IMG/VR virus record: IMGVR_UViG_2522572023_000012
Length of the DNA: 49,370 nucleotides
Strand: one strand, 5' to 3'
DNA from: a virus
Lineage: Duplodnaviria > Heunggongvirae > Uroviricota > Caudoviricetes
Shown here: positions 6,698-21,008 of the stretch, in pieces
Position numbering within the stretch: position 1 is the first letter of the stretch
Layout: every line of letters starts with the position of its first letter
Notes under the pieces: generated by a model
Told to the model about the DNA's origin: nothing
What the model saw: the letters and a program-made list of their open reading frames with translations, nothing else
Database searches by the model: none
Position numbers and translations under genes: made by a program

Positions 6698-7060
6698 TTA
6701 ATGACCTGCTGCGCGGAGTTTTCCGTCAGGATCACCGGCAAGAGTCAGTAATTGTCCCTGGTCTTCCTGCAGAATAGTCAGGCGACCACCGCGATTGACA
6801 TACATCGGCGTTTCGGTGGTGTCTTCTTCGGAAATTTTCCCGCGGTTAGTCGGGCGAACATATGAGAGTTTGTGTTTGATTTTCACACGGTTCTCATCAA
6901 ACGGTTCGATTTCCAGGTTGAGCGAGACCTTACCTTTGGTTTTCGTGTTCATCACACCGGAAGCGACTTCACTGAGAACTGCGCCGATTTTGGTTTCAAA
7001 TACGCCGCCGTCCAGCTCCCCAATAAATGCCTGCACATCAGTACTGCGTTCGCTAGCCAT
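6698..7060 (-). CDS. Hypothetical early phage protein (about 120 aa); start approximate
   Basis: The ORF track extends to 7378, but the N-terminal 106 aa are Arg/Cys-rich GC-noise; a plausible start is MASERSTDVQAF near 7060. Confidence 0.5.
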   Translation of the reverse strand: MASERSTDVQAFIGELDGGVFETKIGAVLSEVASGVMNTKTKGKVSLNLEIEPFDENRVKIKHKLSYVRPTNRGKISEEDTTETPMYVNRGGRLTILQEDQGQLLTLAGDPDGKLRAAGH

Positions 7061-7528
7061 TTTGCTGCTCCTCATCATATCGACCCTGCAAGGTCGGTTG
7101 GTTTCTCCACAAAACAGAGAAGAACACCTGCGGTGGCAGCCGCCCGGATGGATTGGGTTATGAGCCCGTCGTCCGGTGATGCTCTTCTCTGTTTTGTAAA
7201 AAGGACGGTACCAGCCGGAAGCAAGGGTACAAACTGGTACCGCCAGGACTACACACAGCATAAAGTTGTGGTGCCGGGTGCCTCCCGGTGCCTGGCGAAG
7301 GTTGCACACCAGACGGGTGGGTATACACAGAAGGTCGACTGTCAGCCTCAACCTTAACCCGCGTGCACTGAGCCGCATTCACCACAACGCTAAGAATTCT
7401 CTCTGGTTGAAAATACTTAGCTGTTATGTGCCTGCTTTTAGCCACATCAGGCGAGGTGGACCTGGTTATTCCCCAACAACAAGGATTCGGTTAATCTGGT
7501 TATCCCCAACAACGCAAAAGGAAAAGAA

Positions 7529-7945
7529 ATGTCCGGTAATATCTATACGCTGTACAAATCCCACTGTGAAAATGTTGGAAAGTATCGGGGCATTGAAATC
7601 AGTGGGGTAGTGTCATCAGTCGAAATAAGCAAAGTTGAATCAATGGCAACATTACTTACTCTTCTGGATCTTGTCTTACATGAGCACCGGAAGAAATTCG
7701 GCACTCCCTATAATCAGTTGAATGGGAAAAAGGCTCTGGTTCACCTTATTCTGATGAAGCATCACTGGATGCCAAAACAGATTAATGAGATGAAATTTGA
7801 TGAACTTCTTCTTTCAATTCAGGATGAACTCACGCTTGATAAAATAAGCGTAACCGCCCAGAAATTTTTAGATTATCGAGACTGGAGATCACAAATTCAT
7901 CACTTTGAACCGCCCCGGGTTTCCTGGAGAGTGTTTTATCTGTGA
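7529..7945 (+). pseudogene. Hypothetical low-GC ORF whose 3' end runs into the IS629-like terminal repeat (C-terminally truncated or fused by the IS insertion)
   Basis: 138-aa ORF; its last about 13 codons are encoded by the IS terminal inverted repeat starting at 7906. Confidence 0.4.
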
Positions 7946-7947
7946 AC

Positions 7948-8838
7948 TCAGGCTGCCAGATCATCGTTTCCGATGGAAGCATAATAAGCTTTTTCTGCTT
8001 CTGCCGGAGGAGTATGGCCCAGCCTTTCCAGCAATCGTCGATTGTTATACCAGTCCACCCACGTGAGTGTGGCCAGTTCCACTTCTGCACGGTTTTTCCA
8101 GCTCTTACGGTGTATTACCTCCGCTTTGTAAAGACCATTGATGCTCTCCGCCATCGCGTTGTCATACGAGTCGCCTGTACTTCCTGTTGATGCCAGTAAT
8201 CCGGCTTCCTTAAGCCGCTGTGTGTAGGCCAGCGATACATACTGAGAACCTTTATCACTGTGATGGAGCGTGCCGGACGGTCGACGGGCCCATAACGCCT
8301 GCTCCAGTGCATCCAGCACGAATGTCGTCTCCATGGACGATGAGACCCGCCACCCCACAATGTATCCGGCAAACACATCAATGATGAACGCCACATAGAC
8401 GAAGCCCTGCCATGTGCTGACGTAAGTAAAATCAGCCACCCACAGCTGGTCAGGTCGTTCTGCCACGAACTGACGGTTTACGCGGTCGCCTGCGGCAACG
8501 GCTTTCCGGCTGATGGTCGTACGGACCTTTTTACCCCGGAGAACACCGGCAAGTCCCATAACCGCCATGAGACGTGCCACAGTGCATCTGGCCACTCTGA
8601 TACCTTCCCGTAACAACTGACGCCAGACTTTACGCACACCGTATACCTTGTGATTTTCATCGTATACGCGCTGTATCTCTTTCTTCAGCCAGTCATCGCG
8701 CTGCGCACGGGCACTGCGTTTATCCGGATGATGTCGCTGTTGCTGACAGTGGTAATACGTTGACGGGGCAATATGCAGTTCGCTGCATAGCGGTCCGACC
8801 CCGTACTGCTCACGCAGCTTATCCAGCAGTGGCATCAT
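7948..8838 (-). CDS. IS3-family transposase OrfB (IS629-like)
   Basis: 296 aa with DDE-integrase character (LWVADFTYV...HSDKGSQY...DNAMAES). Confidence 0.9.
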   Translation of the reverse strand: MMPLLDKLREQYGVGPLCSELHIAPSTYYHCQQQRHHPDKRSARAQRDDWLKKEIQRVYDENHKVYGVRKVWRQLLREGIRVARCTVARLMAVMGLAGVLRGKKVRTTISRKAVAAGDRVNRQFVAERPDQLWVADFTYVSTWQGFVYVAFIIDVFAGYIVGWRVSSSMETTFVLDALEQALWARRPSGTLHHSDKGSQYVSLAYTQRLKEAGLLASTGSTGDSYDNAMAESINGLYKAEVIHRKSWKNRAEVELATLTWVDWYNNRRLLERLGHTPPAEAEKAYYASIGNDDLAA

Positions 8839-9076
8839 TTTTTCCAGAGGCGGTCGAACTCCGCCTTCGCAAAATAAGCGGAAGCCTGGCGAAGGATATC
8901 GTTACTGCGGCGCAGTTCACGATTTTCACGCTCCAGCTCTTTCAGACGCTGACGTTCAGCGGTGGTGAGCCCTCCATCACCGCCCCCGGTATCCCGCTCA
9001 TGCTGGCGAACCCAGACACGCAGAGTCTCCGGCGTACAGCCAATCTTTGGAGCAATGGAACAAATTGTCGCCCATT
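8835..9076 (-). pseudogene. IS3-family transposase OrfA, N-terminally truncated remnant
   Basis: Frame reads ...QWATICSIAPKIGCTPETLRVWVRQHERDTGGGDGGLTTAERQRLKELERENRELRRSNDILRQASAYFAKAEFDRLWKK* with no start codon; upstream sequence diverges. Confidence 0.6.
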
Positions 9077-9116
9077 GTGGTTCACTTTGATGATTTTGAC
9101 GAAAATGAATGGGATC

Positions 9117-9338
9117 CTAATTTGTCTGCACAATATCTAAAGTAGCATCCTGTGATAAAACCATGATTTCCTGATCCAGTTTTTTTAAGGAGTCTATTGT
9201 TTCCTGTCGATAAGACAGCAATTCACGAAGCTGGTTTATAGCTGCCAGCTTCTTTGTCATCCACTCGTAAATTTCCTCATCTGTGTAGCCAGGCGCGACG
9301 ATTTTTGGTTCTGTTTTGTGCATTTCACATCTCCTCAA
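9117..9338 (-). CDS. Hypothetical small protein between the IS remnant and cI
   Basis: 73-aa ORF with coiled-coil-like composition; position corresponds to the moron slot left of cI in lambdoid phages. Confidence 0.35.
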   Translation of the reverse strand: MRRCEMHKTEPKIVAPGYTDEEIYEWMTKKLAAINQLRELLSYRQETIDSLKKLDQEIMVLSQDATLDIVQTN

Positions 9339-9384
9339 GTTATCAGTTACTTGTTGATGGGGACCAGATTGTTAAAGAGCTAAG

Positions 9385-9410
9385 CGTCCTGTAGGGCGCT
9401 TTTTTGTTGC
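9385..9410 (+). terminator. Possible rho-independent terminator (hairpin gcgtcctgtagggcgc + T6)
   Basis: 6-bp stem (one G-U pair), 4-nt loop, followed by TTTTTT on the + strand. Confidence 0.3.
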
Positions 9411-9570
9411 TAACGAATCATCCTGGACTTCATATGCCCCTGGCGGCTACTTCGTGGGCGTCCTGCCTGTTCGTTATCTTTGATATAAAATCTAACTTAA
9501 CTTAGTTATTATGGCAAGAGAAAACACCAAACTTTTCTTAGTTCGGTGCCTTAGTTAGAGAAGAGAGGTC

Positions 9571-10197
9571 TTAGAGTTCGTATTGAACTCCTTTGACTAC
9601 ACCAATGATAAGGCAATTACCATTGATAGGGATGTTGGGATACCGAGGATTTAATGGCACTAAAAACTTTTGAGGGCCATCGATGACTAATTTTTTTACT
9701 GTAGCTTCGTTTGTTCCATCAAGTCGAGCGATGACTATTTTTCCATGACGAGGTTCTGCATCTGGATCTACAATCACTGTTGCGCCTTCTGGTATTGTTG
9801 GGAGGCCATTAGGGTTAGTCATGGAGTCACCTTTAACCTCTAATGCAAATGAGTTATCACCAATCTTTAATGATGTATCTACCCACTTGTCCACTTCACT
9901 AAACACTTCTGCTGCCCTGCACTCAGTAAACTGCCCAGCCTGAACCCACGATATTACAGGAACTCTGCGCATGTTTGTGACGAGTTTGCCTTCAAACTCA
10001 GCACCATAAAGAATGTAATCTATTGACGTATTGAAGAACTTCGCTAATTTCGAAAGTGCCTCCCCACCAGGGGTATTGATGTCTTTCTCCCAGTACCCCA
10101 CAGCAACGTCGCTTACTCCACAAAATTTACCCAATTCTTTCTGGGACGTTCCGGTAACTCTTCTCAGAGCTTTTATACGCTGACCAACCGTTTCCAT
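9571..10197 (-). CDS. cI: CI-like prophage repressor (HTH + S24 LexA-like peptidase domain)
   Basis: N-terminal HTH (QKELGKFCGVSDVAVGYWE); C-terminal S24 motifs (GDSM ... KIVIARLDG...TVKKL); divergent from cro. Confidence 0.9.
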   Translation of the reverse strand: METVGQRIKALRRVTGTSQKELGKFCGVSDVAVGYWEKDINTPGGEALSKLAKFFNTSIDYILYGAEFEGKLVTNMRRVPVISWVQAGQFTECRAAEVFSEVDKWVDTSLKIGDNSFALEVKGDSMTNPNGLPTIPEGATVIVDPDAEPRHGKIVIARLDGTNEATVKKLVIDGPQKFLVPLNPRYPNIPINGNCLIIGVVKGVQYEL

Positions 10198-16772: not shown

Positions 16773-17072
16773 AAAAATTCCTTAATACTGATAACTGGGC
16801 GCACTATACACACGTTCCTGAAGAAAGCTATAGTTTTTTGATGGGGTTGAAGATGGCTGGATGTCTAAAATAAACATTGCTTCATATGTTCAACTATGCG
16901 TTAATGATTGCGTCGGTTTGAAGAACAGACGATATACGAAGTAGTTTACTAAAGCAGTTCTCATTTCAGGTGTTATTCACTTATTCCTTCTTTGAGTCTC
17001 TCCAATTAAGTACGAAGTCGTTTCTGTTATACAAGCCATTTATGCCGAAAGGCTCAAGTTAAGGAATGTAGA

Positions 17073-17288
17073 ATGTCAAATAAAATGACTGGTTTAGTAA
17101 AATGGTTTAACGCTGATAAAGGTTTTGGCTTTATTTCTCCTGTTGATGGTAGTAAAGATGTGTTTGTGCATTTTTCTGCGATTCAGAATGATAATTTTCG
17201 AACCTTATTTGAAGGTCAAAAGGTTACCTTCTCTGTAGAGAGTGGTGCTAAAGGTCCTGCAGCAGCAAATGTCATAATTACTGATTAA
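17073..17288 (+). CDS. cspB: Cold-shock protein CspB
   Basis: [23 protein letters not shown]...[12 protein letters not shown]; near-identical to CspB as recalled. Confidence 0.9.
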
Positions 17289-17569
17289 AATTCATAGTTT
17301 GTCTGTATACGATAACGAAGAAGGCTGATGCCTGAGTGGAGATACAGACAGAGTGGTGAATATTGGATCTCTTTAATAAATAGTAAGGAGGTCCAATACA
17401 TGAAACAATGGCCAGCATATTTGGCAATAACTTAATCAGGAAAAGTATGCTAACCATTGTGGTGAAGTGCAGGTTTGCTGCATGAATAGTTTTACAGCAG
17501 AAGCTAACTGCTGGCATAGCAAAACAAAGTGCGTAAGTGGATGACTCCCACAAAAAGTACCACAATATT

Positions 17570-20161: not shown

Positions 20162-20524
20162 ATTAATATTAAATCGGATTATTTTTAGCGCTGAATGTGA
20201 AATTTAAATAAAAAGGACTCTTCCATGAGTCAAAATCCTTGAAATCTTAAGGGTAAGATAAAAGGTCATTAGACAGAATGACACGTTTTATTAATAAATA
20301 AAGCTATTGTTTCATTCGTGTGTTTTTCTTTACAAAAGTAATCCTTGCTATGGTTGGTTAATCATGCGTTAATGGTGTTCTGGTTTGTTACAAAATTATC
20401 TGAAGCAGTCATTGTTATAATTTTATTATTTGTACCTCTTGAGATTTCCTTGTTGGTTTTTCTCTCTGATATTTTTTTTCGGACCATTCTGCCCAAGGGC
20501 TAACTTCTTCAAAAGGTAATAATG

Positions 20525-20737
20525 ATGTCTAACAAAATGACTGGTTTAGTGAAATGGTTTAACCCTGAAAAAGGTTTTGGTTTCATCACGCCGAAAGATG
20601 GTAGCAAAGATGTGTTTGTCCATTTCTCAGCTATTCAGAGCAACGATTTCAAAACGTTAACTGAGAATCAGGAAGTCGAATTTGGTATTGAGAACGGACC
20701 TAAAGGCCCCGCGGCTGTTCATGTAGTGGCACTTTGA
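20525..20737 (+). CDS. cspI: Cold-shock protein CspI
   Basis: [45 protein letters not shown]...AAVHVVAL. Confidence 0.9.
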
Positions 20738-21008
20738 GGTAGAAAATATTACAAACCATATTCACTTTAGATGCCCGTGTTGCCATGGTTCGCAGTATAG
20801 AATATCATCTTTTGATGTTTCTGACAGGAATCCTTTCGGGGCAAAATGTATCTTTTGTAAATCAATGATGATTACATTTGATAATATTTCACAATACTTA
20901 AATGTTAGCCGTCTGTCGTTAGATTTAAGAAAGTGAAAATGAAGGCTCCTTCGGGAGCTTTTTTGCTTAGTGTCTAGTCGATGGATACTCACATATTACG
21001 GTAACATT

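Follow-up and report, generated by a model that had tools for sequence, protein, structure and literature searches.

Between the leftward gene yfdP and the next rightward open reading frame (ORF) of the tailed-virus sequence IMGVR_UViG_2522572023_000012 (49,370 nt; the whole of this stretch is called here the window) lie about 400 nt, positions 7061–7460, that carry a long inverted repeat. What does this region encode, and from which strand is it read? The window is 100% identical to Escherichia coli O145:H28 RM12761, and the region was found in 2,781 of 5,426 complete E. coli genomes, as well as in the phages SfV, SfII, SfIV, mEp460, cdtI and Stx2/Stx2c and, at 77% identity, in the Salmonella phage ST64B. 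Our analysis indicates, with reasonable probability, that the region is a composite non-coding RNA segment of the minus strand, located in the early-left leader of an SfV/SfIV/e14-like prophage and made up of a small RNA (sRNA) gene and a three-way junction.

The strand was suggested by the relatives. In ST64B and mEp460 the leader is uninterrupted and runs from a PL-like promoter beside cI to the homologue of yfdP, with a constant order consisting of the cI terminator, operator-like palindromes that overlap good -35/-10 boxes, 600–650 nt of non-coding sequence and the yfdP homologue. Thus, the region corresponds to the distal leader of the early-left operon, and the minus strand is the relevant one. 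When both strands of 7061–7460 were folded, the minus strand gave -165.8 kcal/mol (z=-5.8), and the plus strand reached z=-3.5.

An earlier note on this DNA, made from the letters alone, had described a GC-rich non-coding stretch with a 16-bp inverted repeat and a GGTACC hairpin, and had proposed either a structured RNA or a protein-binding site. The term GC-rich was too strong, since the region has 54% GC against 49.6% for the window, and one-third of the 400-nt windows are equal or higher. To this description we can add that the RNA lies on the minus strand, that the GGTACC hairpin terminates an STnc100/DicF-type sRNA located upstream of the repeat, and that the 53 nt within the repeat form two more helices, one of which copies the anticodon arm of the initiator tRNA.

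The three-way junction at 7109–7197

The inverted repeat was found as first described, i.e., its arms AAAACAGAGAAGAACA (7111–7126) and TGCTCTTCTCTGTTTT (7180–7195) enclose 53 nt, and their single mismatch is A.C on the plus strand and a G.U wobble on the minus strand. A repeat finder extended the arms to 25 nt (7109–7133 and 7173–7197, 84% complementary). When one mismatch at most is allowed, Watson-Crick repeats in 7061–7460 reach a length of 18, a value that was not reached by any of 300 dinucleotide shuffles of the same region (mean 9.6, maximum 13).

On the minus strand, the repeat closes a three-way junction (7109–7197) that is defined by its fold, by covariation and by its identity with an anticodon arm. 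Helix P1, which is the repeat itself, pairs 7197–7178 with 7128–7109 over 20 bp, 18 of them Watson-Crick and two G.U. Helix P2 pairs 7176–7170 with 7150–7144 (CCGGACG/CAUCCGG) and, beyond an asymmetric internal loop, GGG with CCC (7167–7165 with 7157–7155), ending in the loop CUCAUAA (7164–7158). Helix P3 is the hairpin GCGG-CUGCCA-CCGC (7143–7130). The junction is followed by a tail, GGAGAAAC (7101–7108), that is conserved across species and whose GGAGAA can pair, according to the minimum-free-energy fold, with the U-tract of the upstream terminator, lengthening P1 to about 25 bp in a read-through RNA. P1 has, with or without this tail, the length expected of an RNase III site (about 20 bp or more). 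The junction alone (7100–7205, minus strand) folds with -51.2 kcal/mol (z=-8.2).

The 13-nt tip of P2, GGGCUCAUAACCC (7155–7167), is identical to the anticodon stem-loop, including its three G-C pairs, of an E. coli tRNA-Met gene, known as the initiator (tRNA-fMet), that occurs in about four copies in every E. coli genome. Three consecutive G-C pairs in the anticodon stem are a hallmark of initiator tRNAs, and the tip also has the seven-nucleotide loop on a stem that is expected of an anticodon arm. In other respects the junction differs from a tRNA: it has neither a D arm nor a T-loop consensus, the arm is built of 7 bp, an internal loop and 3 bp, and instead of a 7-bp acceptor stem with discriminator and CCA the window has an acceptor-like stem of 20–25 bp without CCA. 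ARAGORN found no tRNA or transfer-messenger RNA gene in the window and did not recognise any form of the junction, and no Rfam family, tRNA (RF00005) included, matched at E up to 10 either the window junction or the short-stem form described below. We favour, with somewhat better than even confidence, the interpretation that the junction is a tRNA-derived element whose closing stem has grown to 20–25 bp.

To collect relatives of the junction, viral contigs and one genome from each species were scanned with motifs. The motifs were exact and up to 120 loci were taken per scan, so that the counts are lower bounds and the invariance of a search motif itself proves little. Within this scope, the junction is present in 26 species representatives, nearly all of them Enterobacterales, in three forms. 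Besides the E. coli form, a wider Enterobacterales form, from Citrobacter, Enterobacter, Kosakonia, Leclercia, Mixta, Erwinia, Klebsiella and others, has the same layout, i.e., a terminator, UUUUUAC, a 20-bp P1, P2, a P3 of 12 to 45 nt and the tail (U)GGAGAA. The third form, from Klebsiella-type lambdoid phages, has a short P1 of 6–7 bp (GGCCUG/CAGGCC) followed by (A/G)CCA. This short-stem element closes a tRNA array downstream of Q in 15 of 17 loci, where it comes after the last tRNA at a distance that coordinate arithmetic places at 6 nt in locus L007 and at about 6 nt in L020, and every short-stem sequence (class 2) contains the join CCA-GAUAAU-GGCCUG. Its acceptor-like stem, its RCCA end and its 6-nt spacing in the arrays examined liken this form to the tRNAs of phage arrays.

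Conservation was examined as the earlier note had proposed, and both the long stem and the inner arm keep pairing in the relatives. In an alignment of 39 distinct sequences, pairing holds in 95.8% of the cells, and sliding the partner lowers this share to 48% or less; for helix P1 the share is inflated, since its partners were selected for the best complementarity. Both sides change in six pairs, for instance G-C to U-A in P2, and A-U to G-C or C-G in helix P1. Among 26 distinct variants of the 20-bp helix P1, compensatory changes appear at positions 4, 9, 12 and 15, and position 19 is U.G in 24 of them, which is a mismatch on the opposite strand. The P3 helix of the short-stem form also compensates (GCGUUG/CAACGC, GCGCUG/CAGCGC, GUGUUG/CAGCAC). 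A covariance model, R1, built from the 39-sequence alignment and giving rough E-values, recovered the window element with 88.8 bits at 7122–7184. Relaxed and model searches revealed the loop variants CUCAUUA, CCCAUAA and UUCAUAU, together with UUAAUAA in the defective prophage e14, and the core was also found with wholly different outer stems in two odd contexts (L426 and L427). Core matches L422 and L426 come from records labelled Chryseobacterium sp. and Acidobacteriaceae metagenome-assembled genome; L422, a typical enterobacterial module, is likely a contamination, and both records with odd labels may be.

The sRNA gene at 7196–7388 and its cassette

Judged by its sequence, the segment 7196–7388 is a divergent, sub-threshold member of the prophage sRNA family STnc100/PasD. 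In a permissive Rfam search of 801 nt it matched the STnc100 model (RF02076) over its full length (positions 1–206 of 206) with 39.2 bits and an E-value of 6.4e-7, below the gathering threshold of 47 bits, and a search of the whole window at the gathering threshold did not return STnc100. The copies of e14 and ST64B likewise match the model. STnc100 is a multi-copy prophage sRNA with eleven transcribed copies in strain EDL933, one of them detected on a Northern blot, and its copies are discrete RNAs in lysogens (PMC5331693). PasD, found by Hfq RIL-seq (a method that ligates and sequences interacting RNAs), has been related to STnc100 by Storz and colleagues (bioRxiv 10.64898/2026.05.13.724894).

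The 5' part of the gene is an STnc100-type (type II) cloverleaf cassette (7265–7388, minus strand), recognised by the STnc100 match and by covariation. It is closed by a helix between GUUGUGGUG (7388–7380) and CACCACAAC (7273–7265), inside which the junction AAU (7379–7377), hairpin A (7376–7358), a variable middle and hairpin B, CCGGG-AGGCA-CCCGG (7288–7274), follow one another. The closing helix UGGUG/CACCA, the GAAU junction and hairpin B agree exactly with STnc100, the same architecture is shared by 106 distinct elements, and the prophage location and the 3' intrinsic terminator are those of the family. The difference resides in hairpin A, which is GCGGCUCAGUGCACGC in the window and CCCC-N9-GGGG in STnc100, and the low score is explained by the window copy being a type II cassette with an unusual hairpin A. 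Moreover, the window copy is located in an early-left leader, whereas the described copies are found downstream of Q/stx, in late regions, and its tail and terminator resemble DicF, unlike those of the STnc100 consensus.

The cassette is followed by a single-stranded tail (7243–7264) containing the conserved UGCUGUGUGUAGUC (7247–7260), a candidate sRNA seed that is kept next to differing cassettes and terminator stems in loci of E. coli, Salmonella, Citrobacter, Enterobacter, Buttiauxella and Mixta. Within the window, the only potential target of this tail was one weak 12/14 match inside IS3. The intrinsic terminator (7196–7244) contains the hairpin with the two GGTACC ends mentioned above, a perfect and G+C-rich stem of 9 bp (7206–7214 with 7234–7242), followed by UCCUUUUU with its U-tract at 7198–7202. 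The 5' arm of this terminator, UGGCGGUACCAG, and its 3' end are DicF-like. In fact, DicF, from the dicB operon of the Qin prophage, also consists of a short single-stranded 5' part and a terminator with a 5' arm UGGCGGUA(Y)CAG and a CCGCCCUUUUU-like end, and the window sRNA lies, as DicF does, inside a repressor-controlled early operon. However, the seed UGCUGUGUGUAGUC differs from that of DicF, and the DicF model (RF00039) gave 15.7 bits and an E-value of 1.5 at 7203–7257, against a threshold of 48; a relative in L181 reached 27.1 bits.

A module boundary lies at 7245. The homology block shared with the mEp460, cdtI and Stx2c phages stops there, exactly at the foot of the terminator, and mEp460 has a type I cassette at the equivalent place. 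A 13-bp hairpin, GCUAAG...CUUAGC (7389–7421, minus strand), detected by the repeat finder and by folding, directly precedes the cassette on its 5' side, and cassette and hairpin together behave as an indel of about 165 nt, given that in L425 window-like flanks are joined without either of them. In L186 the 3' end of a genuine tRNA takes the place of the cassette, immediately upstream of the UGCUGUGUGUAGU tail. A small hairpin, CCAC-N10-GUGG (7442–7459, minus strand), marks the conserved block at its upstream edge, and the homology to SfV, e14 and SfII-type prophages ends at 7459. The window has no second copy of hairpin B, of the type I hairpin or of the anticodon-like arm.

The STnc100-type 5' domain belongs to a very large superfamily of phage cassettes with hundreds of loci, which were collected by scanning viral contigs with three short conserved motifs (L214–L307 are type I, and L308–L413, e.g., L324, L338 and L377, are type II). 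The elements are arranged in a fixed order, namely, a closing helix of 7 bp, GAAU, a 4-bp hairpin A with a loop of 8–10 nt, a variable middle of 16 to 170 nt, a 5-bp hairpin B and the 3' strand of the closing helix. In type I, the loops AGGCUGAU and AGAUCAGCA are complementary over 6 nt, and in the variant L192 both are shortened, to GGCGAU and AUCGC. The type I cassette had no Rfam match at E up to 1 in eight loci. Covariation is extensive: in 88 distinct type I elements each of the seven innermost closing pairs appears as 2 to 6 pair types with at most 6 unpaired rows, and the nine innermost pairs are 88.6% paired, against 34–59% when slid, with a steep fall past the seventh pair. The closing helix of the 106 type II elements covaries like that of type I, in a sample pre-selected for at least 6 of 7 closing pairs. 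Hairpin B can swap CCGGG/CCCGG for GGUGG/CCACC while its loop remains constant.

The proportions of the cassette are those of a tRNA cloverleaf, i.e., a 7-bp stem, a 4-bp hairpin, a variable arm and a 5-bp hairpin that abuts the 3' strand. tRNA genes were present in 13 of 60 type I loci, and in about eight of them a same-strand tRNA lies at roughly 100 nt or less from the cassette. Type II cassettes also form tandem arrays with a period of about 253 nt. The C1-controlled ban operon of phage P1 has a cassette in its leader and, with it, three tRNA genes and an annotated 'dicF-like region', which adds to the likeness with DicF. In the same phage (L414, AF234172; 2447–2636), a hairpin resembling the initiator arm, with the loop UUCAUAU, abuts a type II cassette and overlaps the minus-strand gene upl.

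A tRNA-shaped module fused to a functional RNA is also known from the MALAT1 mascRNA and from the TMER genes of murine gammaherpesvirus 68. The order of cassette and sRNA tail, and the true tRNA that substitutes for the cassette in L186, are reminiscent of these systems, and cutting at the border by tRNA enzymes, as occurs there, would be expected. Nevertheless, those RNAs are eukaryotic or come from eukaryotic viruses, and the cleavage of the phage cassettes is a prediction; in type I cassettes, moreover, the 6-bp complementarity between loops replaces the D-loop/T-loop contact. Hammerhead, twister and HDV-like (hepatitis delta virus) ribozymes were considered, given the succession of conserved parts, and discarded as readings of the cassette, since their required cores are absent from the junction strands and Rfam gave no match. 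No description of the cassette architecture or of the three-way junction was found in the searchable literature, nor any of the junction in Rfam 15.

Alternative readings of the region

Several observations weigh against the interpretation of the region as an early-left RNA leader with an sRNA gene and a tRNA-derived junction, in addition to the inflated pairing percentage of helix P1 and the sub-threshold STnc100 score given above. In this window, an IS3 element and a convergent ORF separate PL from the region, and in this strain the insertion of IS3 may leave the early-left genes uncoupled from PL. A consensus scan near 7420–7460 did not reveal a convincing sigma-70 promoter just upstream of the cassette, and the candidates found there by eye match 3–4 of 6 positions of the hexamers at best. 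Many of the double changes in the junction split only two or three lineages, and the invariance of the anticodon-like core is in part a product of ascertainment, since the homologues were collected by exact conserved motifs. Finally, R1 detected the junction in 3 of 94 type I and in 0 of 100 type II cassette loci. The junction rarely accompanies the cassette, and thus the two parts need not act together; a fixed pairing of both was rejected for the same reason, and they are better seen as independent modules, although in phage P1 and in L151 the one adjoins the other.

Could the structures act in cis on transcription elongation instead? According to this explanation, which we regard as improbable, the cassette (in the manner of HK022 put or of the Bacillus EAR element) or the junction (in the manner of a boxB/boxA nut site) would make the polymerase ignore the terminator at 7206–7242 and those that follow. 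The genomic distribution of the cassettes offers some support: they stand at the head of long, terminator-containing operons, such as the PL leader, the region downstream of Q and the ban operon of phage P1; an intrinsic terminator typically follows 20–100 nt after the cassette; and some cassettes have a terminator immediately upstream that leaves no room for a promoter of their own. Furthermore, the 3' strand of helix P1 is boxA-like in most Enterobacterales other than E. coli, reading UGCUCUU(U) followed by a GU-rich stretch (L416–L440), and it reads UGCUCUUU in phage P1 (L414, about 2490–2500). But this stretch is base-paired within helix P1, it reads UGUUCUU in the window (7109–7128), and the junction lies downstream of the terminator that would have to be suppressed.

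A boxA is, in addition, already present near PL. The PL-like promoter of the window was located by a consensus scan at 9517–9489, beside the cI-like gene, and the first 70 nt or so of its leader are common to ST64B. A perfect boxA, GCUCUUUAACAA (9369–9380, minus strand), is found downstream of this promoter and about 2 kb upstream of the region, preceded by the hairpin AAGCGCCCUACAGGACGCUU; both elements (9369–9402) are about 110 nt downstream of the promoter. This arrangement suggests, from the sequence, Nus-factor-dependent antitermination in a phage without an obvious N protein. It also marks a difference from HK022, whose put site is a two-stem element of about 70 nt directly after PL (PMC9378689): in both, the PL leader of an N-less lambdoid phage contains a structured RNA that lies upstream of terminators, whereas the PL-proximal position is occupied here by a canonical boxA. 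A put-like antiterminator was rejected, since comparison of the region and of three PL leaders with the HK022 nun-cI region by blastn-short yielded chance-level words only, and in sequence they are not similar to the HK022 PL-putL region. Elongation control by the cassette is also difficult to reconcile with its hypervariable arm, its tandem arrays and its occurrence inside tRNA arrays, as well as with the accumulation of STnc100 copies as discrete RNAs in lysogens.

Somewhat less credible is the proposal that the junction is a decaying tRNA pseudogene whose repeat is a functionless by-product, conserved through the recent spread of a prophage module. The E. coli copies are 95–100% identical, so that their conservation reflects largely recent common descent; the short-stem form resembles a degenerate tRNA at the end of a tRNA array; and the rejection of the junction by ARAGORN and by the Rfam tRNA model, together with the mutated loop of e14, points in the same direction. 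Decay, however, does not account for compensatory pairing in P1, P2 and P3 across genera, for a helix P1 that stays at 20 bp while its sequence changes, or for a core that is kept with different outer stems in L426 and L427. The sole clearly degraded copy belongs to the defective prophage e14, as would be expected where a real constraint has been lost.

It is very unlikely that the inverted repeat works as DNA, i.e., as an operator, a recombination site or an origin-like site for a dimeric protein. Such a role would be compatible with the length and near-perfection of the inverted repeat, with its place in a regulatory intergenic region and with the direct repeats nearby (7461–7513) as potential protein sites, but the arms are 39–53 bp apart and enclose further conserved helices, they change by compensation without keeping a binding motif, the core also exists with a 6–7-bp stem in tRNA arrays, and the G.U pairs, one of them in 24 of 26 variants, are A.C mismatches on the other strand. 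Since these G.U pairs are invariant on one strand only, protein-binding DNA is not favoured.

The least probable alternative, with hardly any weight in our estimation, is that a small protein (YmfH-like, or an N-terminally extended YfdP) is encoded and the structures are incidental, since, even though ORFs of 95 and 226 codons are open here and RefSeq names the homologous stretch ymfH in the K-12 prophage e14 and hypothetical proteins in several phages, substitutions relative to e14, ST64B, mEp460 and SfV are spread evenly over the three codon positions in both long ORFs, with no third-position excess in either frame, single-nucleotide indels break the frames relative to e14 and to ST64B, the RefSeq annotation of the source genome has a frameshifted pseudogene, and the phage records disagree on strand and frame. 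A ymfH-like protein gene was rejected on the codon-position, indel and pseudogene evidence, in agreement with the earlier view that the region has no convincing coding frame. Conservation, compensatory pairing and the lack of coding signal therefore sustain the structured RNA, one of the two options originally proposed, and the other, a protein-binding DNA site, is the one that is not favoured.

Genomic setting and a possible pathway

RefSeq annotates yfdR, yfdQ and yfdP (6698–7060) as leftward genes on the left of the region. The proximal 5' untranslated region of yfdP (7061–7098, minus strand) contains the hairpin CGACCUUGCAGGGUCG (7081–7096) and the Shine-Dalgarno sequence GAGGAG (7068–7073), and the start codon is at 7060–7058. 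On the right, a rightward ORF of the ECs1072 family (7529–7945) is followed by IS3 (7948–9200), a small ORF, the gene of a LexA-family, cI-like repressor (9571–10197, minus strand) and a cro-like gene. The IS3-family element carries an ALIL frameshift pseudoknot at 8764–8880. Upstream of the ECs1072-family ORF, the direct repeats CTGGTTATTCCCCAACAAC (7461–7480) and CTGGTTATCCCCAACAAC (7495–7513) are 34 bp apart and differ by 1 nt in length; they are possibly a regulator binding site or a promoter element for this moron-like gene. Elsewhere in the window, two cspA-thermoregulator matches and one IS009 RNA match passed the Rfam gathering threshold (16912–17351, 20367–20783 and 47838–48036), the former being phage-borne leaders of cold-shock proteins. 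ST64B (L003, 5732–5920) and mEp460 (L006, 5675–5863) have adjacent genes for isrK and the C4 antisense RNA, inside or beside a 'transcriptional regulator / antirepressor' gene, as in the immI-like module of the phage P1 type.

From the observed sequences, folds, covariation, family relationship and genomic contexts we infer a pathway for the transcription of this copy, its binding to Hfq, its processing and the role in trans of a released RNA. Transcripts starting at PL, or at a putative nearer promoter, would fold the cassette and then either stop at 7198–7205 or continue. Those that stop would yield a discrete sRNA of the STnc100/DicF kind, which, by analogy with its relatives, would bind Hfq and pair with its targets through UGCUGUGUGUAGUC. 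The tRNA-like cassette domain would most likely serve as a handle for folding, stability or processing, an idea that fits the true tRNA standing in its place in L186.

After induction, a polymerase modified at the PL-proximal boxA would read through the terminator, and the read-through RNA would form the junction, whose stem of two helical turns could be a processing site, RNase III being the obvious candidate. RNase III sites are well known in phage early transcripts, such as the lambda N leader, lambda sib and the R sites of T7. The putative site of the window resembles them in having a stem of about two helical turns in an early leader, directly upstream of the first gene, but the known sites lack the three-way junction, with its conserved tRNA-like arm, that the stem closes here. 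Cleavage would detach the yfdP message from the RNA upstream of it and set free a small RNA resembling the initiator tRNA. In the Klebsiella-type phages, the same core would be released from tRNA arrays by the tRNA-processing enzymes, and the convergence of two processing routes on one core is the best hint that this core acts as a separate small RNA.

The released core could be a decoy for enzymes directed at tRNA-fMet, could interfere with the ribosomal P site, or could be a structural or processing element only. The partners to be considered for a decoy may be the VapC/MvpT-type anticodon nucleases of Shigella, Salmonella and E. coli, the ribosomal P site with initiation factor 3, and methionyl-tRNA synthetase. 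In this respect, VapC of Shigella and Salmonella cuts the anticodon stem-loop of the initiator, and AtaT of O157:H7 acetylates Met-tRNA-fMet (PMC7180214). The broadest version of this proposal, in which the junction is excised from early-left transcripts or from tRNA arrays to act in trans as a tRNA-fMet decoy or inhibitor, and STnc100/PasD is one branch of a vast family of tRNA-shaped cassettes, is offered as a speculation that we consider rather unlikely in its entirety.

The region is present in about half of the complete E. coli genomes and has been annotated as nothing, as hypothetical proteins or as 'YmfH', an annotation that is corrected by its reading as RNA. This reading places a divergent sRNA of the STnc100/DicF type at the entry of the early-left operon and, next to it, a junction with an exact copy of the initiator anticodon arm, which is located behind a terminator or else closes a phage tRNA array as its last 'gene'. 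Against defences that target tRNAs, phages are known to use tRNAs and tRNA-like RNAs, and the initiator tRNA is targeted by the VapC and AtaT toxins. Given these anti-defence RNAs and this toxin target, the mimic of the initiator arm becomes a testable candidate for a decoy or for a translation-control RNA.

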